Origin: a virus
Taxonomy: Duplodnaviria; Caudoviricetes
IMG/VR virus record: IMGVR_UViG_3300036779_000030
Span: 1-46,976 of that record
Length of the DNA stretch: 46,976 nucleotides
Reading direction: 5' to 3' (one strand)
The notes under the pieces are model-generated. The model made no database searches and had not been told where the DNA came from. It saw only the letters and a list, made by a program, of their open reading frames with translations. Of this stretch, positions 731 through 31,716 are shown piece by piece (the first letter of the stretch is position 1; every line of letters begins with the position of its first letter). The position numbers were made by a program, and so were the translations under genes.

Positions 731-738
731 AGGGAAAT

Positions 739-772
739 AAAAAAGCGCCCCCGAATTAACGGGAGCGCTTTT
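739..772 (-). terminator. Intrinsic terminator of the 777-1163 gene
   Basis: Minus strand reads AAAAGCGCTCCCG-TTAATT-CGGGGGCGC-TTTTTT (stem plus U-tract) immediately after the stop codon. Confidence 0.85.
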
Positions 773-776
773 CTAA

Positions 777-1163
777 TTACTTACCGTACGAGTTTACGTC
801 GGAATTTTGGAAATACCGGTAAGCCTTACTCGCGACCGTAACTAGCCGCGCGTCGACCTTTCCGAATTCCGGGAACTCGCGCTCTATCCAGGTCGCGAAT
901 TCCCGCATAGCCCTAGGAGCTTCCGCCGCGAGCTTATACCCGTTCGGCTTCCGCGCCGCTAGAGCGGCGTTCTCGGCTTCGATCTTAGCGAGCTTTTCCT
1001 TTAGCTCGGCTAGTTCGATTTCCGCCTTAGTCGGACGCGCGGCGCGCGGCTTAACCGGAGCGGAATTCTTCGCGGACTTTACGGCCGGAGCGGCTTTTAC
1101 CGGCGGGACCGTCTTAACGGTCGCGGCGGGAATAGCGACGACGGGCGTAGAGATAGCGTCGAT
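777..1163 (-). CDS. Hidden 128-aa basic protein, paralog of 4039..4506, probable ATC start (absent from the ORF track)
   Basis: Open frame IDAISTPVVAIPAATVKT...AMREFATWIEREFPEFGKVDARLVTVASKAYRYFQNSDVNSYGK*; C-terminus closely matches 4039..4506; in-frame TAA just upstream and no ATG/GTG/TTG near the 5' end; AAAGGCGA RBS 5 nt before ATC; own promoter and terminator. Confidence 0.88.
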   Translation of the reverse strand: MDAISTPVVAIPAATVKTVPPVKAAPAVKSAKNSAPVKPRAARPTKAEIELAELKEKLAKIEAENAALAARKPNGYKLAAEAPRAMREFATWIEREFPEFGKVDARLVTVASKAYRYFQNSDVNSYGK

Positions 1164-1275
1164 TTTAATCGCCTTTTTCTTTAGTTAGGAAGGGAATTTT
1201 CCCCGGCTACTCGCGCCGCGTACGGGCGCGAGGTTCGCGATTCGCGCGTTTCCGCGTTTTTCGCTTACGAGTAGA

Positions 1276-4038: not shown

Positions 4039-4506
4039 ATGACCACCCAAGCCGAATCAACCACCGTCCCCACGCGCCGTCGTGGCCGCCGTACGGACAA
4101 GAACGCCGAGTCCAACCAGGGACCGTCCGGCCGCTCCGGTCCTGAGACGGTGACGACGACGGGCAAGCCGAAGGTTGTCCCGATCAAGAAGGAAATCCCG
4201 GCAACGCCGCTGACGCCTGCCCAGAAGGCTGCCGCTACCCGCGCGGCGAAGGCGCAGGCGATCAAGGAGCAGTCGGAAGCGCTAGCCGCCGAACTGGAGA
4301 AGGCGAAGCAGAAGGCAGCACCCAAGGAGCCGCGCGTCACCGGACACCGGATGTGGGCAACCAAGGAGATTCCCGGTGCCATGCTGCGGTTCACGAAGTG
4401 GATCAATCGCGAGTTCCCCGAATTCGGCGGCGACGTTGACCCACGAGTGGTTATGGTTGCCTCCAAGGCATACCGGTACTTCCAGAACTCAGACCTGAAC
4501 CCGTAG
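4039..4506 (+). CDS. Basic protein with C-terminal M..F..W...Y..FQ.S..N domain (putative DNA-binding)
   Basis: Own promoter, AAAGGCGA RBS and terminator; paralogs at 777-1163 and 17676-18116. Confidence 0.85.
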   Translation: MTTQAESTTVPTRRRGRRTDKNAESNQGPSGRSGPETVTTTGKPKVVPIKKEIPATPLTPAQKAAATRAAKAQAIKEQSEALAAELEKAKQKAAPKEPRVTGHRMWATKEIPGAMLRFTKWINREFPEFGGDVDPRVVMVASKAYRYFQNSDLNP

Positions 4507-8664: not shown

Positions 8665-8666
8665 CA

Positions 8667-8876
8667 AGGCCGTAGGCGGCTCCTACGGCGCGCGGGAACC
8701 GGTACGTACCGGAATACTCCCGATCGGGGAAAACCCCGTAGCGTCCGGCTACGCCGCGCGTAGCGGGTACGGCGGGAAATCCGCGCCCGTAAACGGCTCT
8801 AGGACGAACCCTAGCGCGCCGGTAGCGGGAACCGGTAGGGTAGGTAAGCCGAGCCGTAGAGCGCTTCTACGGTCCT
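8667..8876. other. 210-bp CA/TG-free, hairpin-rich intergenic island
   Basis: No CA or TG; hairpins GCCGTAGG/CCTACGGC, CGTAGC/GCTACG, CCGTAGA/TCTACGG; weak promoter TAGCGC-N18-TAGGGT at 8812-8841. Confidence 0.85.
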
Positions 8877-10183: not shown

Positions 10184-10200
10184 TAACACGCGACTAGGCA

Positions 10201-10338
10201 TCGCGCTAGGATCGTCCCTACCGTTCGCGCGACGCGCGGTTAGGGGTAGCCTACGTTCCGAGTTAACCGGCGCGTACGGCTTCCCTAGCCGCGCGGGAAG
10301 GGCTATAATCGAGAGAGGTAGCCGACGGAAACGGCTAC
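10201..10338 (+). promoter_or_regulatory. 138-bp CA/TG-free island with promoter TTCCCT-N17-TATAAT (10281-10309)
   Basis: No CA or TG; consensus -10; several hairpins. Confidence 0.75.
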
Positions 10339-10377
10339 TGGAAAAAGGAGGGTTACCCTCCTGAGGAGGGATACGCC

Positions 10378-13079: not shown

Positions 13080-13910
13080 ATGGATGTCGTCTATATCCCA
13101 ACTTTGAGCCGCACAGACATGCTCAAGAAGACCGTGCCACAATGGATCGATCAAGGTCTTCAGATACGGCTCGTGGTCGACCGCGCCGAGTTCAGCATAC
13201 ATGATAAGCTAAAGAGGGCAGAGGATTGGGGTAGGGATGTCTACATCTTGCCTCTCCCACTCTCCGGACGCGGTATGGGTTACGCGAGAAACTTCATCGT
13301 ACAGCACGCAAAGAAGACATCCCTCGTCTCAATCATCATGAGCGATGACGATGTCCACATACACACGAACTCGAACGCAAGCCTCCTCCTAGAAGAGGCA
13401 GAGAAGCCAGGAGTCCTCGGAGTCGGCGCAATCAGATCCCTTCATGACAGATTCACGAATGGCGCGATCTCCAAGAACCACGGCGCTATCCTGTGTCCTG
13501 GCGGATGGGGGTTCACCATCCACGGACTCAACATCGAGACCGCGCTTGCTTGCGGAAACTTTGACCCGAAGCTACATTCATTCGGAGAGGACGCCGAGCT
13601 GGCGCGGATGGGAATCATCAGAGGTATTCCGTGGCGCGTACACTGCGATGTCGAATTCGTATCACTCAACAAGCGGCTCGATCCCGGAGGGTTCTCGGCA
13701 AAATACCAAACACTAGAAGCACGACTAACAGCAGAATTGGAATGCCGGAAGATCATCCACAGAAAGTGGCCCAACTATACTTCCATCCCGGAAAAGAAGC
13801 CGCGTGTGGCATGGCAGAAACTCCTGAATGACTACATACCTAACTGGAAGGAAGCATCCGCAATTCACGGCGGATCTCTCGATCGACTGGAGATGACAGG
13901 TGGCGTATAA
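13080..13910 (+). CDS. GT-A fold glycosyltransferase (TET-associated/GREB1-like, candidate DNA glycosyltransferase)
   Basis: VYIPTLSR, ARNFIV, IIMSDDD (DxD), GEDAEL and PGG motifs. Confidence 0.75.
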   Translation: MDVVYIPTLSRTDMLKKTVPQWIDQGLQIRLVVDRAEFSIHDKLKRAEDWGRDVYILPLPLSGRGMGYARNFIVQHAKKTSLVSIIMSDDDVHIHTNSNASLLLEEAEKPGVLGVGAIRSLHDRFTNGAISKNHGAILCPGGWGFTIHGLNIETALACGNFDPKLHSFGEDAELARMGIIRGIPWRVHCDVEFVSLNKRLDPGGFSAKYQTLEARLTAELECRKIIHRKWPNYTSIPEKKPRVAWQKLLNDYIPNWKEASAIHGGSLDRLEMTGGV

Positions 13911-17378: not shown

Positions 17379-18116
17379 ATGTCGACAATCGGCGTCATTC
17401 CGACAAGAAAAATTCTCGTATCGCGCTACGGCTTTTCCCCGGCAAACGCACGATTCATTACCGGGTACACGATAGATGACGTGCGAAAACCGTCAAAAGA
17501 ATGGAAGGTTCCGAATTCGGATGGCTTCATTACCCTCCGTTATGTCGATCCGGGCCGATTCGAGCTAGAGGACCACACCGAAAGTTCATCGAGAAAGGGG
17601 GTAGCCATCCTACCGCGTCCGGAGTATAATCGGAAGGGTAACGCGAAAGTGCCCCACCCCAGAAGGGATTCCCCCATGCCAGCCGCACGAGGACGCAGAG
17701 CCGCCCAGGTCGCACCGCCAGAGCCTGAGCCCGAAGAGAATGGCCAGGTCGACTTCCAGCGATACCTGGACAAGGACCTGTCCCCGACGATGACCGACTA
17801 CGTGACCTGGTTCGAGGACAACGTCGCCGCCCTGGAGGATGTCCCCGTGGACAAGCTCCTGTCGCTCGGCTCCGCCCTGTACCCGCACTTCCAGAAGTCC
17901 GAGTTCAATCTCAGTCAGCGCGAAGCGCGCAAGTCCGAACGTGCCGCGCGGGAACCGGAACCCGAGCCTGAGCCTGAGCCCGAACCGGTCAAGCGCGGTC
18001 GCGGGCGTCCGTCCAACGCATCCAAGGCGGCAGCAGCAGCACCGGCACCAGCCCCAGCTCCCGCACGGCGCGGTCGCGGTCGTCCCCCGAAGGCAGCGGC
18101 AGAGGCTCCCTACTGA
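17379..18116 (+). CDS. AT-hook DNA-binding protein with FQ.S..N domain; likely second start at 17676
   Basis: RGRGRP twice; MTDYVTWF...LYPHFQKSEFN aligns by eye with 4039..4506; internal promoter and RBS. Confidence 0.8.
   Translation: MSTIGVIPTRKILVSRYGFSPANARFITGYTIDDVRKPSKEWKVPNSDGFITLRYVDPGRFELEDHTESSSRKGVAILPRPEYNRKGNAKVPHPRRDSPMPAARGRRAAQVAPPEPEPEENGQVDFQRYLDKDLSPTMTDYVTWFEDNVAALEDVPVDKLLSLGSALYPHFQKSEFNLSQREARKSERAAREPEPEPEPEPEPVKRGRGRPSNASKAAAAAPAPAPAPARRGRGRPPKAAAEAPY
17602..17630 (+). promoter_or_regulatory. Intragenic promoter TAGCCA-N17-TATAAT
   Basis: Consensus -10 with 17-bp spacer; AGAAGGGA RBS before in-frame ATG 17676. Confidence 0.65.
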
Positions 18117-18266: not shown

Positions 18267-19243
18267 ATGAATGACCTACCTACGCTACGCACCAGCGAAC
18301 GTTCAGTATTTTTAAGCGATGCCCACAACGTTGGTGGTGGGAATACCGCCAAGGTTACCGGCAGCGTTCCCCGCAAGCGGATGCCCTATGGTTTGGAATA
18401 GGCATTCACGAAGCCCTAGCGCAGTGGTACCTAAAAGGCAAACGTCGCGGTCCACATCCGGCCGATACCTGGGAAGCATGGTGCGGCGAGGAAATAGCGT
18501 TCGCGCGGACATATCTTGACGATACGTTCGATGAGCCGATATGGTATGATGCCAAGGAACTAGGCATCGCTATGCTTGAGGAATACACCGACTATTACGG
18601 CCGCGATACGCAATGGGACATAATCTCAATCGAACAGCCATTCCGTGTTCGCATCACTCGCGACGGTACGCCTATCGCCTACTTCATATCGCGATGGGAT
18701 GGTGTACTTCGCAACGCCGAAGATGGCAAGGTATACCTTCTTGAGAACAAGACTGCCTCGCAAATAACCCTCGCCTATCTTGAACTTGACGATCAGGCCG
18801 GTAGTTACTGGGCAGTAGCATCACAGCTTCTTCGATCGCAAGGCATTCTGAAGCCGAATGAGCCTATCGCGGGCATCATCTACAATTTCCTCCGTAAGGC
18901 GAAGCCGGACGAGCGCCCGATGAACGTAGATGGCCTTCATCTAAACAAAGACGGCAGCGTCTCTAAGAAACAACCTCCGCAGGCATTCGTACGCCAAGTC
19001 ATCGAACGTTCCTCGAAAGAGCAGCGAACTCAACTTGAACGGATAGCCGACGAAGTCGCCGTCATGAATGCCATCCGTAAAGGCATCCTCCCAGTAACCA
19101 AGACGGTAACGAAAGACTGTACGTACTGTCCGTTCTGGACTCCTTGTACCCTTCACGAGCGCGGTAGCGATAGCTACAAAACAGTCCTCCGGAACAACTA
19201 CAGACAAGCAGACCCGTACGCCGACATGAGGAAGGCTGCGTGA
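18267..19243 (+). CDS. PD-(D/E)xK RecB/Cas4-like exonuclease, frame break at the T5 run 18309-18313
   Basis: MNDLPTLRTSERSVF in one frame continues as KRCPQRWWWEY...GIGIHEALA...DGVL...ENKT...CTYCPF in the -1 frame. Confidence 0.8.
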
Positions 19244-19647
19244 TGTACGCAACTGGATGGATCTACCTCGCAGCCCAATACGAGCGGAAGGAGGAAATGC
19301 GCAAATACCGGGATGAACTTTCCAGCCTAGGTCTTAACGTGACATCCCGCTGGATTGACAACGAAGGGCAAGATGAAGGTCTCGGCATAAATGACCTTGA
19401 CGTAGAATACCGTAGAGGTATCCTGCCGGCCCTCACAGACACAGAAGACATCGCGCGAGCGGACGTCTTCATCATGTTCACGAACGGACTCGGCCGAGGT
19501 GGTCACCACACGGAACTCGGCATAGCGCTCGCCATGAACAAGGAGATCTTCATCATAGGCAAGCGCGAGAATGTATTCCACTGCTTGTCGGCAATCACCA
19601 TCTTCCCGGACTGGGAAACCTTCATAGTATGGCTACAGGAGCAATAA
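19240..19647 (+). CDS. Nucleoside 2-deoxyribosyltransferase-like / dNMP N-glycosidase-like protein
   Basis: IYLAA, DTEDIARAD and GHHTELGIA motifs. Confidence 0.7.
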   Translation: MMYATGWIYLAAQYERKEEMRKYRDELSSLGLNVTSRWIDNEGQDEGLGINDLDVEYRRGILPALTDTEDIARADVFIMFTNGLGRGGHHTELGIALAMNKEIFIIGKRENVFHCLSAITIFPDWETFIVWLQEQ

Positions 19648-20695: not shown

Positions 20696-21493
20696 ATGGT
20701 TAAGCTCCGCAGGGAAGACACCGAAGACCTGGACGTCGAGGAACTGGATGCCCTTGAGTACTCGACCGAGCAATTCGACACCTACGACGGGGAAGTGCCG
20801 CCCAAGGACATCGAGCTGTCCGGCTACGTCAAGAAGATGTGGTGGACCAGGACGCAGAACGGTGACCCGATGCTCAAGGTGCTCTGGGTCGCGGCCGAGA
20901 ACGATGGCGACTTCGAAGAGTACAACGACTGCCCGTTCTGGCTGAACTACGCCCTGATCGGCGGTGCCAAGTTCCGATGGGCACCGTTCATGGAGAACTA
21001 TGGCTTCACCCTGAAGCAGGTGAAGAACAACACTGACGTCCAGGACAAGGACGACCAGAACGGAGCGCCCATCAACAAGATCGGCAGCTTCCGCCCCGGC
21101 GAGGAAAACGACGAAGCCTGGGCGCGTATCATCACCGACCGGGAGCGGTACAACGGGGAATGGAAGTCCGCCGTCAAGGAATGGCTTCCATGGGAGGATA
21201 GTGAGGAGCCGCAGGACGAGGCAGAAGAAGAGGAGGAACCAGAAGAGGAAGAGGAGCCAGAACCCGAGCCGGAACCCGCTAGGCGCGGCGGAAGAACAAC
21301 GTCCCGCGCGGCCCGTAGCGCGCCGGAGAAGCCCGCCGCTAGGGGAGCGCGTACCGGTACCCGATCGGCGGCGAAAGAGCCGGAGAAGCCGTCTCCGCGC
21401 GGCGCGCGAGGTACCCGGACGGCTAAGCCCGCTGCCGCCCCGGCGCGCGGTCGTGGTCGTGCTCGCGGCGACAGCAACGAGCCTCCATTTTAG
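20696..21493 (+). CDS. ssDNA-binding / annealing protein-like
   Basis: Position after Sak4-like gene; OB-like core; acidic then basic tail ending EPPF. Confidence 0.65.
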   Translation: MVKLRREDTEDLDVEELDALEYSTEQFDTYDGEVPPKDIELSGYVKKMWWTRTQNGDPMLKVLWVAAENDGDFEEYNDCPFWLNYALIGGAKFRWAPFMENYGFTLKQVKNNTDVQDKDDQNGAPINKIGSFRPGEENDEAWARIITDRERYNGEWKSAVKEWLPWEDSEEPQDEAEEEEEPEEEEEPEPEPEPARRGGRTTSRAARSAPEKPAARGARTGTRSAAKEPEKPSPRGARGTRTAKPAAAPARGRGRARGDSNEPPF

Positions 21494-21574: not shown

Positions 21575-21937
21575 ATGGAAGGTCCACTCGACAGCATCAG
21601 GTATCTCACCGAAGTCATCCGGAGCCTGAACACAGAAAAAGGATGGCGTGAGAAGTTCGGCGGCGACATAGTGCCGCCACGTACCGGTCCTTGGTTCGCG
21701 GCGTACGTCGCCCTGGCCCAGTCGGAACTGTCGGAAGCCCTAGACGCCTACCGGAACAAGATATGGTCTGATACAATAGACCACAAGCCGGTCGGGGTAG
21801 GTCCTGAGCTAGCCGACGCGCTCATCCGGATTCTAGACATGGCCGACATCTGGGGTATCGACCTACACTATGAGCTAGAACGCGTCATCGCGTACGGCCA
21901 TACTCGACCGTACCAACATGGAGGCAGGACTCTCTAG
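21575..21937 (+). CDS. MazG-like nucleotide pyrophosphohydrolase
   Basis: ALAQSELSEALDAYR...ELADALIRILD. Confidence 0.85.
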   Translation: MEGPLDSIRYLTEVIRSLNTEKGWREKFGGDIVPPRTGPWFAAYVALAQSELSEALDAYRNKIWSDTIDHKPVGVGPELADALIRILDMADIWGIDLHYELERVIAYGHTRPYQHGGRTL

Positions 21938-22710
21938 TGGTCTGCATCATGATCCTTGGATGTGGCCCTGCAGGACTGGCGGCAGCGGAAGCTGCCGTCA
22001 GTTCCGGCCATTACGTAGTTATAGCAAGCAACAATAACGCTCCTAGCAGAATATATGGTTGTCAGTATCTTCACGCACCGGTGCCCGGATACGAATGGGT
22101 TCAACATACCCGAGTCGGCTACTGGCTAAACGGTACGCCGGAACAGTACCGACTCAAGGTTTACGGCGAGAAATGGACGGGCAAGGTTTCGCCGGAAGAC
22201 TTTGTCGGAGAACATGACGCATGGGATATTCGTGCGACGTATACAGCTATGTGGGCAAGACTCCACGAACTCAAGAAAGTACGCTTCTTGAAGATTTCCC
22301 AGATCACTAATGGCGAAATTGACAGCAACGTATACCGCTTCCATCCCGAGAAGATCATCTCGACCATACCCGCGCGAGCACTGTGTCACAACAAGGCACA
22401 TGAGTTCTCGTTCCACAATATATGGGCCATAGGCAGTACCTCCAGAGGGCTTGAAGCTGAAGACACGATCATATGTGACGGTACGGAAGACCATACATGG
22501 TACCGAAATGCCTGTGTATTCGGATACCGCACTACTGAATGGTCACATCCACCAACCGGCGGCGAGAATACGGCTACTGTCGTGAAACCACTAGCGACTA
22601 ACTGTAACTGCTATCCACATATCTACCGGATCGGCCGGTACGGAAAGTGGCAGAAGAGCTACCTAGTCCACAAAGCATACCCGGACGTAATGAGGATTCT
22701 CCGTGACTAG
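21937..22710 (+). CDS. FAD-dependent oxidoreductase (UDP-galactopyranose mutase-like features)
   Basis: ILGCGPAGL dinucleotide fold, GCQYLH, IISTIP and GRYGKW motifs. Confidence 0.7.
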   Translation: MVCIMILGCGPAGLAAAEAAVSSGHYVVIASNNNAPSRIYGCQYLHAPVPGYEWVQHTRVGYWLNGTPEQYRLKVYGEKWTGKVSPEDFVGEHDAWDIRATYTAMWARLHELKKVRFLKISQITNGEIDSNVYRFHPEKIISTIPARALCHNKAHEFSFHNIWAIGSTSRGLEAEDTIICDGTEDHTWYRNACVFGYRTTEWSHPPTGGENTATVVKPLATNCNCYPHIYRIGRYGKWQKSYLVHKAYPDVMRILRD

Positions 22711-23365
22711 CCAAATATTTAGGAACGGTGCGCTGCGCGGTGTTGTTGCTCTAGATATCGACGGCACCCTAGGCGACTACCATGGTCACTTCCTGAAGTT
22801 TGCCGAGGGATGGCTCGGCCGCACTATGCCGTCACCGGACACCATAAACCCAGGACTTCGGCTATCGGAGTTCATGAGCATAGATCATGCCGTCTACCGA
22901 AAGATCAAACTAGCTTACCGACAGGGCGGTATGAAGCGAACGATGCCGGTGTACGACGGAGCGAGCGCACTGACTGCCTGGCTCAAGGACCAGGACATCG
23001 AGATATGGATATGTACGACTCGACCGTACAATCGTTTGGACAATATTGACGAAGATACCCAGGAATGGCTAAATCGGAATCTAATTGACTTCGATGCAAT
23101 TCTATGGGATGATTCCGAAGGACATGGGAAATACCACGAACTAGTTCGGCAGGTAGGACTCAACAGAATCATAGCCGCCGTAGATGACTTGCCGGAACAA
23201 CTCCATCAAGCTCGCGCAGCCGGTATACAGAATCTATACCTTCGCGCACAGCCATACAACCTAAGAGGTTCTGACAGGGACGGCATGATTCGTGTCCATA
23301 GTCTTCCAGCACTCAAGTCATTCCTGAGTTTCCATATAGCCGCCTGGAAGGAAAAGACGGGCTAG
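22703..23365 (+). CDS. HAD-superfamily phosphatase (5'-nucleotidase-like)
   Basis: DIDGT, TTR and VDD motifs. Confidence 0.85.
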   Translation: MTSQIFRNGALRGVVALDIDGTLGDYHGHFLKFAEGWLGRTMPSPDTINPGLRLSEFMSIDHAVYRKIKLAYRQGGMKRTMPVYDGASALTAWLKDQDIEIWICTTRPYNRLDNIDEDTQEWLNRNLIDFDAILWDDSEGHGKYHELVRQVGLNRIIAAVDDLPEQLHQARAAGIQNLYLRAQPYNLRGSDRDGMIRVHSLPALKSFLSFHIAAWKEKTG

Positions 23366-23391
23366 TAATCGGCCCGCCCGCGCGGTATAAT
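23363..23391 (+). promoter_or_regulatory. Promoter TAGTAA-N17-TATAAT
   Basis: CA/TG-free intergenic patch; consensus -10. Confidence 0.75.
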
Positions 23392-23419
23392 AGAGGTAGC
23401 CGAACTAGAAAGCCGGGTA

Positions 23420-23695
23420 ATGAAGAAAACATTCTGCGATGTATGCGAAGAACAATGCATCAATACCACGATTACGATGCGCGCGGTAATGGTACATCAC
23501 ACCAGCGACGGGAAGTTTGCTGGCGAAGATGAGTATAAAGAAGTCGAGATTTGCCTAGACTGCTTCAACAAAATCAAGGAACGCGTACCGAAGGCATTCA
23601 TTCTCATCCATCGCGAATTCGTCGATGAGGAAGCAAGAATGTCACCGAGCATAACAGAAGCACCAGTTCGAGTAGAAAGTACAGGACGTGGCTGA
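23420..23695 (+). CDS. Small Zn-binding hypothetical protein
   Basis: CDVC...CLDC. Confidence 0.75.
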   Translation: MKKTFCDVCEEQCINTTITMRAVMVHHTSDGKFAGEDEYKEVEICLDCFNKIKERVPKAFILIHREFVDEEARMSPSITEAPVRVESTGRG

Positions 23696-24263
23696 GTTCC
23701 CTCATCCCATTACGCTCTGGGATCATTTCAATATCGCGATGATCCGCGACTTCGCGCAATGGCAAGATACCGAGCCGGAGCCGAGCGCGGTATACCTCCA
23801 TCTCAGCCACGGCCGTAAGCATATCGTATCGCCTCCCGGCGTCAATTGGATTCATTACGACTTCCCGGAATGGGATGCGAACAGAGGACTTATACCAGCT
23901 AACGACGAATCCGTAAGCGGTATCTTCACCTCGCACGCCATGGACCATTACGCACGTCCCATATGGTTCCTGTCCGAAGTACAGCGCGTTCTGAAGACCG
24001 GAGGCTGGTTCGTCAACATTGCCGGACACTACACCAGCGAGCTAGCACACAACTGCTTCGAACACCGTACGCGGTTCGCGATCGACGTCTGGAAGAACGC
24101 CTTCAGCGACCATTATTATGACCAGACCGGCGCGGTAGATGGCGATACCGGAATGGGATGGAAATTCGAAATCGGCTTTAACATGATCATGGGCCTGAAG
24201 GAAAACAACGTCGTCCTTGTGACGCAACTCATCAAGACCGACCACGTAGTGAGGTACGAATGA
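23688..24263 (+). CDS. Class I SAM-dependent methyltransferase-like protein
   Basis: IPANDESVSGIFTSHAMDH...EVQRVLKTGG; motif I degenerate (HLSHG). Confidence 0.65.
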   Translation: MAEFPHPITLWDHFNIAMIRDFAQWQDTEPEPSAVYLHLSHGRKHIVSPPGVNWIHYDFPEWDANRGLIPANDESVSGIFTSHAMDHYARPIWFLSEVQRVLKTGGWFVNIAGHYTSELAHNCFEHRTRFAIDVWKNAFSDHYYDQTGAVDGDTGMGWKFEIGFNMIMGLKENNVVLVTQLIKTDHVVRYE

Positions 24264-24946
24264 CCACCAACAAGTGTCTCGTTATCGGCGGTACCTCCGG
24301 CATCGGGCAAACAACGTCCGTACTAATCGCCGAGAGGATGAAGTGTGAAATAGACACACCAACGAAGGATGAGCTAGACGTCATGTACGTACTGGATGTC
24401 GAGTCGTACATCCATGCGCATGGACCATACTCACACATCGTCTACTCGGCCGGGCTCAATGGGCTTCATTGGATTAAGGATTCTGACATTTGCGCTATAA
24501 CGCACAATCTGCTCGCGGTTAACTGTACCGGATTCATCAGCACTATCTCCGAGCATATCCGCCTCTTCCCGGAAGCACCAATATCGGCCGTTGCCGTTAG
24601 CTCTGACGCCGCGCGGATTCCGATGCGCGGTTCCGTCGCCTACTGTACTTCTAAGGCCGCCTTGAACATGGCCGTGAAAACTATGGCACGAGAACTAGCA
24701 CCGCGCCACAGGATTAACGCGGTCGCGCCGGGGATGGTCGAGGATACTCCCATGACGAAGTACATTGACGAAACCCTCCCCGGATTCCGTAACTGGAGCG
24801 AGTCATTCGCTCGCAAGTATGAGAAGCGAAATACCCCTACCGGCAGAAGAGCTACCAAACAGGAAGTAGCCGAGACAATATTCTGGGTCCTTATCGGGCC
24901 GCCACAAATGACCGGCGCCATCATCGAAATCAACGGAGGCAAATGA
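24260..24946 (+). CDS. Short-chain dehydrogenase/reductase
   Basis: GGTSGIG, YCTSK, INAVAPG, INGG. Confidence 0.9.
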   Translation: MTTNKCLVIGGTSGIGQTTSVLIAERMKCEIDTPTKDELDVMYVLDVESYIHAHGPYSHIVYSAGLNGLHWIKDSDICAITHNLLAVNCTGFISTISEHIRLFPEAPISAVAVSSDAARIPMRGSVAYCTSKAALNMAVKTMARELAPRHRINAVAPGMVEDTPMTKYIDETLPGFRNWSESFARKYEKRNTPTGRRATKQEVAETIFWVLIGPPQMTGAIIEINGGK

Positions 24947-25257
24947 TGGCCACGAATGAGAAAGGGCAAAGAGGGGTAAAACCATCAAGCGTAAAAGGAC
25001 CAGATAAAACAACAACAACTCCATACGAGGGAATAAACTTGAGATGGCAAACGTGGATCACAGGAATAGATGCTATCAAGAGTGGCTATAAAAATGACTT
25101 TTTTAAAATTATACGAGATTTCCATAGGGAAACAAGTCAAGGATATATCAACAGGAATGGACCTGACAGGAGAGAAAACGCGCAGAAACAGCTAAATGAT
25201 ATGAAGGCAGATCTCGATGACCAACAACGACTACTAGATGAATGGAGCGGCAAATGA
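24943..25257 (+). CDS. A-rich hypothetical protein
   Basis: ATGA coupling on both sides. Confidence 0.6.
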   Translation: MMATNEKGQRGVKPSSVKGPDKTTTTPYEGINLRWQTWITGIDAIKSGYKNDFFKIIRDFHRETSQGYINRNGPDRRENAQKQLNDMKADLDDQQRLLDEWSGK

Positions 25258-26195
25258 TGAGCGAGTGGACTAGTCACGAGGAAATGGAGCAGGATTATAT
25301 GCCACCGACAAAGAAGAACCTTCCAATGAAGTGGGCCGACGAGGCAATGTACGCGGCGGCTCCGCTCTCGGACGGTACCGAGCCGGTACGTCCCCGCGTA
25401 ACCCTCGTATCGATGACGGCCGACCCGCTTCGGGTTATGGCAGCCGCATCGGAGTTGTACCAGGGAGGTGTCTACTCGGACCCACGACTCATCTCACACG
25501 ATCAGGCCTTGAAGTGGCTAGATGGATTCCGGAAGAGCAAGATCAGCGCTCCGCTGGAGTTCATATCCCTCCACTTCTTCATCGAAGGTGTGACGCGGGC
25601 CTTCACGCACCAGCTCGTTCGGCAACGTACGGCGGTGTTCGTCCAGGAGTCAATGCGCTTCGCGGTGAAGGAGAACGCCGCATTCGAGATAGTCATGCCT
25701 CCTAGCATATCAATCCTAGCCGAAGACCATCCTATGCGCGTCCTCTGGAAGCAGGCTGATGAATATGACGCCTGGGTATATAACTCGCTAATCGCCGGCG
25801 GAATACCAGCCGAGGATGCACGAGGCCGCCTTCCAACTAACATCGCAACTCGTATTCACTACCACACCGACCTACGCAATCTAGTCAACCAGTCCGGGAT
25901 GCGGCTCTGCTCACAAGCACAAGCCGAATGGAAGCAGGTCTGGGCCGAATTCATCAAGGCCATCCTTAGCTACGGCCCGCCGGAGGAATCCTGGCAACAG
26001 CGAGAGATCGGCAAGCTATTTAAGCCGGTCTGTTACCAGACGGGCAGCTGCGGCTTTAACGGCCCGGCCGATCGCTGGTGCGTCATCCGCGACCGGGTTA
26101 ATGCGCACTCGGCTGCCGGAGATCCCCCGGACACCTGGACAGACATAGACCCGCGCGAGCCACTAAAGGCGAACGCAGCAAGGATGCCACAGTGA
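25254..26195 (+). CDS. thyX: ThyX-like flavin-dependent thymidylate synthase homolog
   Basis: PLEF, TRAFTHQLVRQR...QESMRF, EDARGRLP and RLCSQAQAEW motifs. Confidence 0.85.
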   Translation: MMSEWTSHEEMEQDYMPPTKKNLPMKWADEAMYAAAPLSDGTEPVRPRVTLVSMTADPLRVMAAASELYQGGVYSDPRLISHDQALKWLDGFRKSKISAPLEFISLHFFIEGVTRAFTHQLVRQRTAVFVQESMRFAVKENAAFEIVMPPSISILAEDHPMRVLWKQADEYDAWVYNSLIAGGIPAEDARGRLPTNIATRIHYHTDLRNLVNQSGMRLCSQAQAEWKQVWAEFIKAILSYGPPEESWQQREIGKLFKPVCYQTGSCGFNGPADRWCVIRDRVNAHSAAGDPPDTWTDIDPREPLKANAARMPQ

Positions 26196-26809: not shown

Positions 26810-27202
26810 ATGCCAGACAAGAAGAAAATAACGGTAAACAAAACCAACGCCAAGGACATCACAAAAGACCCACGCATCATGGCCGCCATAGACCTCGTCG
26901 GGCGTACCGGAGCAAACGAGTTCCAGTTCCGATTCGCCGATGACGAAAGGCCAACAATATGGATGGCTATCGGCCGCTGGGACGATACATACGAAGTTGG
27001 TGCTAGCACTAGCCCAGATGTAGCAATATTCCGCCTACTCGATGAGATCATTGACGGCGGTACCTGTACGCACTGTAACAAGCCAGCCGGATTCGAGGAG
27101 AGCATCAATCCGATGCCTCTCAGCGACCTAGTGTGTTGGTATCAGTGGGACCCAGAACTCAAGGTGTTCCGGCGCGGATGTGGAGGAGATGATGACAAAT
27201 GA
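26810..27202 (+). CDS. Hypothetical protein
   Basis: Operon packing; CTHC. Confidence 0.7.
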   Translation: MPDKKKITVNKTNAKDITKDPRIMAAIDLVGRTGANEFQFRFADDERPTIWMAIGRWDDTYEVGASTSPDVAIFRLLDEIIDGGTCTHCNKPAGFEESINPMPLSDLVCWYQWDPELKVFRRGCGGDDDK

Positions 27203-28125
27203 AGTACGTATCACTTCATCACCACTCAACCTTCAGCCATGGTGATGGCCACAAGCTTCCTGAAGTACATGTTCAGCGGGCGGCCGAGCTAGGCTATACC
27301 GCGCAGGCACTCACAGAACATGGCGGCACCTCAAGTCACTTCCAGTTCGAGAAAGCCGCTCTGAAGGCAGGCCTGAAGCCTATCTTCGGACTCGAAGCCT
27401 ACACTGGCCCTACAGACGAAACCCGCAGCCAATGGAAGTACCACCTCACAATACTAGCAGGGAGCAATAATGGATACCGTAACCTCAACCGCCTCGTCAC
27501 CCAATCCTGGCGAGATCATCACTATCATCCAACAGTTTCTGGAGAAAATCTCGCAAGTAATTCAGAAGATCTTTACATACTGTCTGGATGTACTGGAAGC
27601 ATGCTTGCCTGCGCTCTCGTCGGTGGCAAGGGAATACCCGAGCCTACTTCCCGAGACGGCTATGGCTGGGATGACGCACGACGCATCATCAGTCGTTTTC
27701 ACAGGCTATTTGGAGCCAATTACTTTCTCGAAGTCCAGCCCTTCTATGAACTGGACAAGACATGTCGAATCAATCCTGCGTACGAACGACTCAGTAATGA
27801 GACAGGTGTACCGCTCGTAGCGACGTGTGACGTTCACTACCCGCGCCCCGAAGACTCGAACATGCAGGCCATCCTCCATGCGGTACATCGGAAGAATCAG
27901 TCAATCGACGACGCGATGCGCTCCTGGAATTATGACGTCCCAATGACCCTCCCAGAATCAGACAAGGCTCTAGGCATTCGCCTCATGAAGACTGGCCTGT
28001 CCCGCACAGCTGCCTGGGAGGCTATCCTGAACTCGGCGTATATAGCCGAGAACTGTAATGTAACCCTCCCGAAAGCCGCCCGGCTAGAATACCCAATATC
28101 CGACGAAGACTGGGAGCCATGGTGA
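27199..28125 (+). CDS. dnaE: DNA polymerase III alpha, N-terminal PHP domain (split gene, part 1)
   Basis: SLHHHSTFS, ALTEHG, KPIFGLEAY, HLTILA, TCDVHY. Confidence 0.92.
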   Translation: MKYVSLHHHSTFSHGDGHKLPEVHVQRAAELGYTAQALTEHGGTSSHFQFEKAALKAGLKPIFGLEAYTGPTDETRSQWKYHLTILAGSNNGYRNLNRLVTQSWRDHHYHPTVSGENLASNSEDLYILSGCTGSMLACALVGGKGIPEPTSRDGYGWDDARRIISRFHRLFGANYFLEVQPFYELDKTCRINPAYERLSNETGVPLVATCDVHYPRPEDSNMQAILHAVHRKNQSIDDAMRSWNYDVPMTLPESDKALGIRLMKTGLSRTAAWEAILNSAYIAENCNVTLPKAARLEYPISDEDWEPW

Positions 28126-28274
28126 TGCCCTGGTGGTTCTGGCTATTCCTAGCCTGGAATATCCTCAACACGATACTCATCCAGATACTTCACCTGACAA
28201 CTCCAACTATGACAAGAATACGGACGCTTCATGGTAAAATACACTCCGGGAATTCATACGGTAAGCATATCTGA
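28125..28274 (+). CDS. 49-aa membrane-type hypothetical protein (MPWWFWLFL...)
   Basis: Read manually; TGATG coupling. Confidence 0.45.
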   Translation: MPWWFWLFLAWNILNTILIQILHLTTPTMTRIRTLHGKIHSGNSYGKHI

Positions 28275-28313
28275 TCTCATAATAGTCATGCTCATAGCGA
28301 GATCGGCATTCAA

Positions 28314-28550
28314 ATGGCTAAGTACAATATTCACATGGGCACTCAAGATTGCGAGGAAGCAATGGCGCCGATAGACATATACATCAGGCACTACGTAGGC
28401 CACTGTGCCATATGCGGATTCCCAGTCTTTGATATGGGCAACAGTGATGAACTGGAGCACGACTTCATGTTTAATCTCACATTCAACAGAGAATACAGTG
28501 GGAACGACTGGTTCTTCAGAACATTCCATATGGATGTGTATCGTGGATAA
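28314..28550 (+). CDS. Hypothetical protein
   Basis: ORF with CAIC in the dnaE gap; weak RBS. Confidence 0.4.
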   Translation: MAKYNIHMGTQDCEEAMAPIDIYIRHYVGHCAICGFPVFDMGNSDELEHDFMFNLTFNREYSGNDWFFRTFHMDVYRG

Positions 28551-28758
28551 AGTCCAATGTCAATGTAAGGCTTTCGCAGCAATACGATGCCTATACCCGG
28601 CAACACAAGAAGACTTCCTCTGTGACACATGTCGCGAGAAGAAATGCGGCCTACTGATAACTACACCAGGACGGCAAGAACGACACGTCATCGCAACATT
28701 CGAAACGAGGCATCTCAATGAATGGACAAAGCCTGTCAAAGACAACCCCCAAGCTTGA
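28543..28758 (+). CDS. Cys-rich hypothetical protein
   Basis: CQC...C...CDTC; start uncertain. Confidence 0.5.
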   Translation: MDKVQCQCKAFAAIRCLYPATQEDFLCDTCREKKCGLLITTPGRQERHVIATFETRHLNEWTKPVKDNPQA

Positions 28759-31015
28759 GGGCAGTAGACCAGAAGCCGAAGAACTCCTATGGCACTGGGT
28801 CCGTCAGGGATGGCGGTACCGCAACATCGGCTCACTACCGCGCGTCGACCAGAATTGGTACGTCGATCGCATCAAGTACGAGATGTCCCTTATCCTGCCG
28901 CGCGGCCTAGCAGACTTCCTCCTATTCACATCCGATACCATGAGATGGGGCAAGGACCATGGCATCCCGTTTGGGCCGGGGCGCGGTTCTACGGCGGCTA
29001 GCGCGGTCGCCTACCTACTCCGGATTACGGAGATCCCGCCACATAAGTATAAGGGTATGCTCTTCGAGCGGTTCATCGACATTACCCGGCCCGACCCTCC
29101 GGACATCGACGTGGACTGCTCTGATGAGGATCGCTGGCGAGTCTGGGAATACCTTGAGAACAAGTACGGTTCGAATCGCGTAGGACATGTAGCCAACTTC
29201 GTCAGGTATCGCGGCAAGAATTCCCTCGCCGATGTCACGAACGTCTACAATATCCCGATCTGGGCGCGGGAAGGTGTAGCGAACCTACTCATCGAACGGT
29301 CGGGAGGAGACTCCCGCTTCAGCTCCACATTGGAAGATACCTTCGAACTGTTTCCTGAAGCACAGAAGATCCGGGAAGAATACCCCGACATCGGAAAAGC
29401 CTGCCGCCTTGAAGGCGACGTCAGAGGCATGAGCATCCATGCGGCCGGACTCGTTATCGCGAACAGCCCACTAACCGACATATGCGCCATCTACGAGAAG
29501 GATGGCGTCAAGGTCATGAGTATTGACAAGTACGATGTTGAGTACGCAGGCGCACTAAAGCTCGACTTCCTTGGTCTCTCAACCATGGGGATGATCGCAC
29601 GATGCCTACACATGGCAAACATAACTCTGGAGGATCTCTATGCGATTCCTGACGATGACGCTAGGACGATCGAGGTATTCGCCACAGGAGATGTCGTTGG
29701 TGTATTTCAATTTGAAGGTCGAGCTACACGGCTCGTCAACCGTGACGTACATCCAGATCACTTCATGCACATCGCCGACATCAATGCGCTATCGCGTCCT
29801 GGACCACTATTTTCCGGACAAACAGCCGCTTATGTGGACGTTCGCCATGGACGGAAGAAAGCTGAGAGACTACATCCGATCGTCGATGAGGTCACCAAGG
29901 ACACGTACGGACAGATCATCTACCAAGAACAGATCCTCCGGATACTCAAGGACATCGGAGGATTCGACTGGTTCTCCGTAAGCCAGATCCGCAGGATCAT
30001 CTCCAAGAAAATGGGCGAAGCCGCCTTCCAGATGTCATACCAGCAGTTCGCAGACGGCGCAAAGAGCCTACACGATATCGATGAAGAACTAGCCGATCGG
30101 ATCTGGAAGCGGCTCGTTACCTCGGGAACCTATAGCTTCAACATAGCCCACTCGATCTCGTACGGAATGCTAGCGTTCTGGACCGCATGGCTGAAGGCTA
30201 GGTACCCGGTCGAATTCTACGCCGCTTCCCTTCAGAAGGCAGCTAGTAACGCCGAGTTGTCATTCCGGCTTATGCGTGATGCCCTAGGCCATTCAATTGA
30301 CGTAAAGCCGCCATCCCTAGCCTACTCCCGAGCTAACTGGCGTCCCGTCCAGAACGTCGGCCTAGTCGCAGGATGGCAGCAGATCCCTAAGATCGGCGCA
30401 ACAACCGCGCAGCGAATCGAAGAACAGGCAGGTGATTACGGCTTCGATGACTGGATCGAAATGGGACAGATCCCCGGAATCGGCGACAAGACGATCGCGC
30501 GGATGGAGGAATGGACCCTAGCGAAAGACCCATTCGGCCTGTACCGTACGGAGAAGCGCCTAGCGTCCGTATCCCGATTCCTGCGCGGTAAGGGGAAGGG
30601 CGAAGCGCCGCTCCCGACGCATGATGGTGATAGACTCGCCAGCATCATAGTTAAGCAAAGTAAGAAGGCGCATACGTGGAATCCAGGACCGCGCGTCATC
30701 TATATGGGAATGGTACGCAAGGTCGAATACAAGGACATAGTGGAAGACGAACGCTCGCGATCCGGCCGAGAGGTTGAGGAGATCCTGAAGACCATCAAGC
30801 GTCCTGACCTAATAAAGCGGGCAACTATTCACTGTTATGACACAAGCGATGAAGAGGTGTACGCGCGAGTTAATAGATGGAGGTATCCTAGACTGCAGAA
30901 GCAGCTCGCACTAATACGGCCGAACCGAGACGTAGTGATTATTGTCGGAAACCGAATCTCTGGATTCGGAACACCGATCACCGTCAATGATATCTACATA
31001 CTAGATCCAGACTAA
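28718..31015 (+). CDS. dnaE: DNA polymerase III alpha, catalytic part (split gene, part 2)
   Basis: GPGRGS, FERF, PDIDVD, HAAG, KLDFLGL, GVFQFE, YQEQ, YSFNIAHS. Confidence 0.95.
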   Translation: MNGQSLSKTTPKLEGSRPEAEELLWHWVRQGWRYRNIGSLPRVDQNWYVDRIKYEMSLILPRGLADFLLFTSDTMRWGKDHGIPFGPGRGSTAASAVAYLLRITEIPPHKYKGMLFERFIDITRPDPPDIDVDCSDEDRWRVWEYLENKYGSNRVGHVANFVRYRGKNSLADVTNVYNIPIWAREGVANLLIERSGGDSRFSSTLEDTFELFPEAQKIREEYPDIGKACRLEGDVRGMSIHAAGLVIANSPLTDICAIYEKDGVKVMSIDKYDVEYAGALKLDFLGLSTMGMIARCLHMANITLEDLYAIPDDDARTIEVFATGDVVGVFQFEGRATRLVNRDVHPDHFMHIADINALSRPGPLFSGQTAAYVDVRHGRKKAERLHPIVDEVTKDTYGQIIYQEQILRILKDIGGFDWFSVSQIRRIISKKMGEAAFQMSYQQFADGAKSLHDIDEELADRIWKRLVTSGTYSFNIAHSISYGMLAFWTAWLKARYPVEFYAASLQKAASNAELSFRLMRDALGHSIDVKPPSLAYSRANWRPVQNVGLVAGWQQIPKIGATTAQRIEEQAGDYGFDDWIEMGQIPGIGDKTIARMEEWTLAKDPFGLYRTEKRLASVSRFLRGKGKGEAPLPTHDGDRLASIIVKQSKKAHTWNPGPRVIYMGMVRKVEYKDIVEDERSRSGREVEEILKTIKRPDLIKRATIHCYDTSDEEVYARVNRWRYPRLQKQLALIRPNRDVVIIVGNRISGFGTPITVNDIYILDPD

Positions 31016-31260: not shown

Positions 31261-31536
31261 ATGTCACTTACCGCCCCGGAACGCGAGACGATCATCAACT
31301 TCAATGACGGCGAGGATATCGCCTACATCTATACCGCACAACGCAAGATTATCACCAAGCTCAAGAAAAATCCCTCCGCCACATTGAAAGAAGAGGGCGT
31401 GTTCGAGGGTACTGCTTGGGCAAGATTCACCATACCGGCAAACCTCATAAGCTTCAGGGTCGCCCGGCCTAAGCGCGAACTATCTCAAGAACAGCGAGCC
31501 GAGATCGGGGAGCGACTAAAGCGTAACCGTACGTAG
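31261..31536 (+). CDS. Hypothetical protein (start at MSLTAPERET)
   Basis: AGGA RBS; last rightward gene. Confidence 0.75.
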   Translation: MSLTAPERETIINFNDGEDIAYIYTAQRKIITKLKKNPSATLKEEGVFEGTAWARFTIPANLISFRVARPKRELSQEQRAEIGERLKRNRT

Positions 31537-31716
31537 CCGCCCGCTAGCCTCCGAAACGACGCTAGCTAGCGTATCCGAGAGACCCTACCCCGCCCCGGAG
31601 CGGTTACCGCTTCCCTAGGGGGTTCGCTCCCCGTTCGTCGCCTAGGAACGTCCCCTACGCCCCGTCCCTAGGGGGTCCGCCTAGCCCCCCGGCCCCGGCT
31701 CCGGTACGAACGGGTC
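31494..31716. other. 223-bp CA/TG-free island at the convergence of the two arms
   Basis: No CA or TG; CCCTAGGGGG twice, palindromes ACGCTAGCTAGCGT and AGCGGTTACCGCT. Confidence 0.85.

Follow-up and report, generated by a model that had tools for sequence, protein, structure and literature searches.

A gene of 128 codons that is almost free of the dinucleotides CA and TG, and that is apparently read from an ATC codon, was identified on the minus strand (777-1163) of the window, i.e., the whole stretch of 46,976 nucleotides analysed here (IMG/VR record IMGVR_UViG_3300036779_000030), which represents a partial siphophage genome. The feature is real and conserved, and apparently convergent: not only the gene but its transcription unit is purged of CA/TG, frame and start region are kept in a related phage, promoters elsewhere in the genome are purged likewise, and a second CA/TG-free copy is present in a distant phage. 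The explanation favoured here, which is held to be rather probable, is that a conserved gene, its whole transcription unit being purged of CA/TG, escapes a mark that hinders polymerase and is thus readable early. With the ThyX-like, DnaE and oxidoreductase proteins taken as reference, the closest cultured relatives include PLot, MoiGyank, Leopard, Gibson, Wollypog and AnnaSerena (<50% identity); as these are actinophages, the host is presumed to be an actinobacterium.

The CA/TG desert (727-1660, without strand) spans the whole unit and extends over ~400 nt of upstream non-coding DNA, beyond the promoter. Between 727 and 1589 only three CA/TG sites occur, namely at 808 (Gln), 889 (Trp) and 906 (Met codon), so the claim of an earlier note on this DNA, that the gene keeps CA/TG only in codons which force it, was confirmed. 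The CA/TG-free gap 907-1589 measures 683 nt as compared to 223 nt for the second-longest CA/TG gap in the window, and when ten dinucleotide classes were compared for the rarity of their gaps, the -log10 expected count was 34.8 for CA/TG and 2.1 for the runner-up class. Synonymous recoding of the frame with the phage's own codon usage yielded a mean of 36.7 and a minimum of 21 CA/TG, and none of 20,000 draws reached the observed three. Within the desert GA and TC are undepleted (o/e 1.29 and 1.02, respectively) and no class other than the CA/TG-containing trinucleotides is absent, hence the constraint is specific to the CA/TG pair. As both CA and TG are gone from one strand and as untranscribed -35 regions are hit too, the constraint was concluded to act on double-stranded DNA. 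Two causes were ruled out, i.e., an mRNA nuclease, as the mRNA lacks UG as well as CA and as the purge extends to untranscribed boxes, and a logic of CpG decay, as CG is undepleted genome-wide (o/e 1.16). Pressure from the host, with a methyltransferase, silencer or defence factor that acts at CA/TG-containing sites and blocks promoters, is regarded as quite unlikely: host motifs usually comprise 4-8 bases, but the CA/TG-containing trinucleotides are depleted in eight of eight classes, and CA/TG is normal genome-wide (o/e 0.97 and 0.99) and enriched in the neighbouring DNA, even if phages are known to purge host motifs (PMC12707154, in its accessible part) and avoidance does not track the phage glycosyltransferase or methyltransferase, the related genome G001 having no methyltransferase match.

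The non-coding flank next to the unit (1-726, without strand) is rich in repeats and CA/TG-enriched (132 sites vs 94 in shuffles, z 5.1). Corresponding flanks are CA/TG-rich in G001 (z 5.7) and G007 (z 11.2) and weakly so in G003, and that of G006 is not (z -2.8). Dispersed short repeats flank the unit at 1-726 and 1680-1930, among them a 9-mer occurring seven times and several palindromes containing a SalI site, and G003, G006 and G007 begin with repeats that resemble them.

Translation of 777-1190 on the minus strand yields an in-frame stop (TAA) and, after six intervening codons, the ATC that opens the frame of 128 codons, in which Met occurs once (codon 86) and His and Cys are lacking, in agreement with the hidden frame that had been described in the earlier note. 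The ribosome-binding motif AAAGGCGA is located at 1176-1169 (minus strand), 5 nt before the ATC (1163-1161), and also precedes the ATG of three other genes at spacings of 3, 8 and 8 nt. It belongs to a 35-nt block (1148-1182, minus strand) comprising the in-frame TAA, an A-rich leader, the RBS and the candidate starts ATT and ATC, which is identical in G001, whereas the DNA upstream of it aligns poorly. The arrangement of RBS and ATC was thus borne out, with the addition that an in-frame ATT (1169-1167), two codons upstream of the ATC, is a second candidate; it overlaps the RBS and, judged from the sequence, could possibly serve as alternative start by using the A-rich leader. A real conserved gene lacking an NTG start codon is therefore supported by the comparison of these sequences. 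In E. coli AUC and AUU initiate at 1-2% of AUG, as given in the accessible text of 10.1101/063800. As AUC is weak, as three sites are tolerated elsewhere in the unit and as the G006 copy keeps a GTG start, the ATC is hard to explain by a cost per site, and a low or regulated output is the likelier reason for it. By the same token, ATC is a high price for the removal of one TG, which counts against the favoured reading. Avoidance of TG at the start holds for the window and G001, both without NTG, but it is not general.

The promoter of the unit is predicted at 1276-1304 on the minus strand (-35 TAGATT, 17 nt, -10 TAGAGT), which leaves a leader of ~105 nt. With a matrix built from six other promoters of the phage it ranks 21 of 93,894 positions, a moderate match, and its G001 counterpart is a weak one (rank 239 of 121,376), whereby the matrix is not independent of the purge, as its six training sites came from CA/TG-free gaps. 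The promoter proposed in the earlier note was hence recovered by the phage matrix, but not by a generic sigma-70 scan, which found no promoter for the unit. The proposed terminator was substantiated as an intrinsic terminator-like hairpin with U tract (736-775, minus strand) with a fold z of -5.7, which none of 200 shuffles equalled, although it is absent from the output of a generic scan. For the leader, no stability beyond that of shuffled sequences was observed (z -1.1), and an Rfam search over 1-2500 returned three matches, all far below the gathering scores.

A match to the recoded gene was found in two of five related contigs searched. The G001 orthologue shows 74% identity, lies inside a 688-nt CA/TG gap and contains 4 CA/TG as compared to 36.2 expected. 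For this one genome pair, dN/dS amounts to 0.28 across 123 aligned codons; the part preceding Met86 (80 aligned codons) gives 0.34, and residues 45-85 taken separately give 0.20. Decay of orthologues, which had been named as an outcome that would speak against the gene, was thus not what G001 revealed, as its frame is kept. That translation starts from Met86 only, or that the frame is a decaying copy, is considered highly improbable: selection before Met86 is purifying, the RBS block at the ATC is invariant while no conserved RBS precedes Met86, and an N-terminal arm of similar kind is present in every homologue, against which stand the weakness of non-NTG starts (10.1101/063800, accessible text) and three database proteins of 40-45 aa (P0018, P0026 and P0030) whose first residue is the corresponding Met. 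In run X2, which belongs to a different study, 915-1086 is present without any difference, alongside a short contig from a third variant, the loose end of which is CA/TG-free too. Run X1 gave no coverage of ~205-1911, to which no weight is attached. Neither of the full-length ATC proteins was among the eight matches of a search, and pattern scans for further ATC orthologues returned two and three matches; L136 and L139 were rejected as such, being chance matches in tape-measure-like genes.

The second CA/TG-free member of the family resides in G006 (also L048 and L051; 44% identical). It contains 4 CA/TG in 471 nt, at the GTG start and at Met, Trp and Gln codons, with the GTG being the sole unforced TG, and it comes with a purged leader region of 553 nt, a terminator-like hairpin and a promoter of its own that was ranked top; an ordinary paralog follows 3 kb further on. 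Just upstream of this desert, L061 427-724 comprises 297 nt without CC/GG and with tandem palindromic repeats. In the tree each recoded copy groups with ordinary ATG homologues, and a single clade of recoded copies was rejected by the AU test (p 0.00024), which included 16 of 33 domain rows and 74 columns, 17 more distant Cas4-neighbour rows having been left out. Two independent recodings would accordingly appear to be the better fit to this alignment, which is short and in which recombination could mislead. The strand of the recoded gene relative to the early genes is opposite between the window and G006 lineages.

A different origin of the desert would be a DNA element, such as an origin, an entry or a protein-loading site, that is kept unmarked with the gene as passenger. 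This is improbable, since the purge ends shortly after the terminator in all three genomes compared (window, G001 and G006), since the strand of the gene is opposite in the two lineages, since the G001 gene lies ~8 kb away from predicted packaging genes and since the upstream sequences of window and G001 align poorly, although ~400-550 nt of non-coding DNA upstream are purged as well and a gap between convergent genes (31493-31716) is CA/TG-free in several relatives. The latter stretch, purged also in G001, G002, G004, G005, G008, G010 and G011, may correspond to an origin or encode a small RNA.

The earlier note had reasoned that the product may enable expression of the modified remainder of the genome. 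As a pioneer factor, for instance one that recognises the mark or assists elongation, it would let RNA polymerase read the modified remainder. This is thought to be unlikely despite the recoding having arisen twice within one family, the occurrence of the family in phages with the oxidoreductase/ThyX-like cluster (it was not found in Predator and Papyrus) and the position of its members, which are often first in the early region and are the first genes after the early promoter in G003, L055 and L056. The claim was weakened by G007 (98% complete), the promoters of which are CA/TG-free, yet which has only family members in ordinary codons and lacks a recoded copy at the syntenic position; on this ground the product is probably not indispensable for reading the modified remainder. 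Furthermore, 10 of 11 metagenome loci have an ATG start, with 29-70 CA/TG per frame, the frame of L055 carrying CA/TG at about half the average of its locus.

Beyond the recoded unit, most CA/TG gaps of at least 60 nt in the window precede genes and hold promoter-like boxes, with a few located inside genes, and the -35 boxes read TAGACT or TCGACT rather than TTGACA. CA/TG-free promoter gaps were likewise identified in G001, G002 and G007, and G003 has no CA/TG gap over 52 nt. Intergenic CA/TG, computed on the annotated parts of the genomes and, for the window, on gaps chosen from ORF limits, shows an o/e of 0.71 in the window (z -7.0, 21 gaps), 0.67 in the cultured Gordonia phage MoiGyank (z -6.7, 15 gaps), and 0.79 in Wollypog (based on no more than 2 gaps); PLot (0.95), Gibson (0.90), Predator and Papyrus lie at 0.90-1.02. 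Intergenic CA/TG-free stretches at 8666-8876 and 10200-10339 are longer than one promoter needs. A CA/TG-free stretch (21298-21433) encodes the Arg-rich tail of the gene following the Sak4-like annealase, likewise in G001, G002, G008 and G010, and may act as internal promoter of the nucleotide cluster. An undescribed CpA/TpG mark as genome-wide expression code, in which marked repeats form barriers, promoters lie in unmarked islands and the product of a pioneer gene, recoded at least twice independently and down to its start codon, opens the marked genome to transcription, may be entertained as a speculative idea with a small but appreciable chance of being true.

The recoded protein consists of an Ala/Lys/Pro-rich N-terminus and a conserved two-helix domain (84-119); its structure model predicts helices at 46-70, 84-96 and 105-119, with pLDDT >90 in the domain, in a monomer without strand. 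Its paralog 4039-4506 (plus strand) has an ATG start and a CA/TG-free promoter ahead, and two further statements of the earlier note hold for it, namely the match to the recoded gene (34/53 identical, E 3e-21) and its free use of CA/TG (51 vs 49.5 expected). A third family member, 17379-18116 (plus strand; domain at 17745-17924), was found by profile and is located upstream of the Cas4-like exonuclease gene, as it is across relatives; its product carries two RGRP motifs in the tail, which we take to resemble AT-hooks. Inside this gene a CA/TG-free promoter-like stretch (17607-17676) is followed by an in-frame ATG at 17676, so that a shorter isoform with the shared domain appears possible from the sequence. 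A library search identified 33 relatives with a common 50-residue domain behind a low-complexity arm. Within cultured phages the profile matched PLot gp55, Gibson gp68 and gp82, AnnaSerena gp42 and MoiGyank gp43, all annotated as hypothetical, with probability 86 and E 5e-6 in one profile comparison and E 2e-6 to 4e-3 in others. Four of nine cultured genomes were thus matched and Predator, Papyrus, Wollypog, Onyinye and P3.1 were not; as the Wollypog member was missed by the profile and later reached through the Gibson copy, absences of the family are weak evidence. MoiGyank gp67 did not match the profile. Searches gave no match for the recoded gene in INPHARED (47 weak matches of the paralog at E 0.5-0.6 were taken as chance), none in IMG/VR with single-protein patterns, no Pfam or PHROG family for the gene or paralog 4039-4506 and one NCBIfam match for the two, far below cut-off; the PDB sequence search returned nothing for the glycosyltransferase, the family of the recoded gene or the oxidoreductase, Foldseek against PDB nothing at E 0.001 and the Atlas nothing of use. 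The best BFVD match of the family was a Wollypog protein (E 3e-3). Fold matches were weak (Z 3-4; best Z 4.2, rmsd 3.1 over 45 residues, TraM N-domain), with many of them being small DNA-binding domains, and hence it is from composition and motifs that DNA binding is suggested.

Candidate genes for DNA modification are found further on. A TAGT-like glycosyltransferase (13080-13910, plus strand; phrog_842) matches PF20691 with 34.9 bits (cut-off 27.5) and is a candidate DNA-modifying enzyme; in L009 316-2093 (G010) such a gene occurs in two tandem copies. A nucleotide-metabolism cluster (21575-26195, plus strand) encodes a pyrophosphatase, an FAD oxidoreductase, a HAD/NT5C-like hydrolase, a methyltransferase, an SDR and a ThyX-like synthase. 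The canonical ThyX motif is RHRx7S; in the ThyX-like synthase RQR replaces RHR in 22 of 22 rows, and TIGR02170 scores 85 bits, below its cut-off of 87.9. A weak nucleoside 2-deoxyribosyltransferase match (E 0.0013, below cut-off) is located at 19240-19647, and DnaE (27199-31015) is split into PHP and catalytic genes ~600 nt apart, as it is also split in Wollypog. Among the genes scanned of this partial genome, in which many ORFs are without family, no match to a dUMP hydroxymethylase or 5-hmU DNA kinase was obtained. The glycosyltransferase was found in none of nine cultured relatives, MoiGyank included, which is purged without the enzyme, and G003 has it, yet little purge, hence it is neither needed nor enough for avoidance. 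PLot and Gibson possess oxidoreductase and ThyX-like genes, yet show no intergenic depletion. The oxidoreductase occurs in 126 cultured phages.

For the favoured explanation, that of a purged unit escaping a mark, we infer a bulky and likely phage-made modification at CA/TG of the phage DNA, which would most simply sit on the T of TpG, be made via the ThyX-like cluster and be finished by a transferase. This mark is predicted to hinder the host RNA polymerase, so that the purged unit could be transcribed from the DNA soon after its entry. The product, a predicted small basic DNA-binding protein of nucleoid type, may aid early expression or protect the incoming DNA and is likely useful, not required. 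With the lineage-specific ATC (or ATT) start, protein output would be low and possibly tuned. Against this explanation, CA/TG use is normal in the remaining genes, which likewise have to be transcribed from the incoming DNA. If it is true, the DNA chemistry of the phage itself would have moulded its promoters and, within one gene, the codons, the residues encoded and even the start codon, and sequence alone could reveal the context of an uncharacterised DNA modification; the avoidance points to a mark in a phage group with cultured members, of which MoiGyank offers a direct test, and the recoded gene exemplifies a class of genes missed by gene callers.

Within the literature searched, outside of which lay most subscription papers and preprint supplements, no report of the avoidance, the family or a modification in these phages was found. 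A close parallel to the predicted mark is the thymidine modification of phages M6, ViI and phiW-14, which is context-specific at TG/TC (PMC6449724, accessible part). In both cases a TG-containing dinucleotide context is singled out and nucleotide-modifying genes reside in the phage; those phages target TG and TC, whereas in the desert described here GA/TC is undepleted, the genes scanned yielded neither an hmU kinase nor a ThyA-type hydroxymethylase, and avoidance in promoters or genes, as seen in the window phage, is not mentioned in the accessible part of that source. The glycosyltransferase, by passing the PF20691 cut-off, links the window to the TAGT enzymes of T-even phages (PMC13390438, accessible part). 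Different from these and from base J, no TET/JBP or hmC pathway was detected and the putative glycosyltransferase does not predict avoidance across relatives. Base J hinders RNA polymerase II. The cultured actinophage homologues (phrog_10024, 34140 and 20596) share the same small domain, often in multiple copies and with low-complexity tails, and have ordinary starts, with none being CA/TG-free (MoiGyank gp43: 34 in 417 nt). Avoidance of restriction sites in phages (PMC12707154, as far as accessible) is likewise the purge of a motif by selection; in the window, by contrast, what is purged is a dinucleotide, the effect is limited locally to promoters and a single gene, and its consequences extend to codon choice, amino-acid composition and the start codon. 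Finally, the AUU starts of infC and pcnB (10.1101/063800, accessible text) are likewise AUH codons behind a good RBS, and what sets the window gene apart from them is that its start coincides with a dinucleotide purge, while the distant copy uses GTG.
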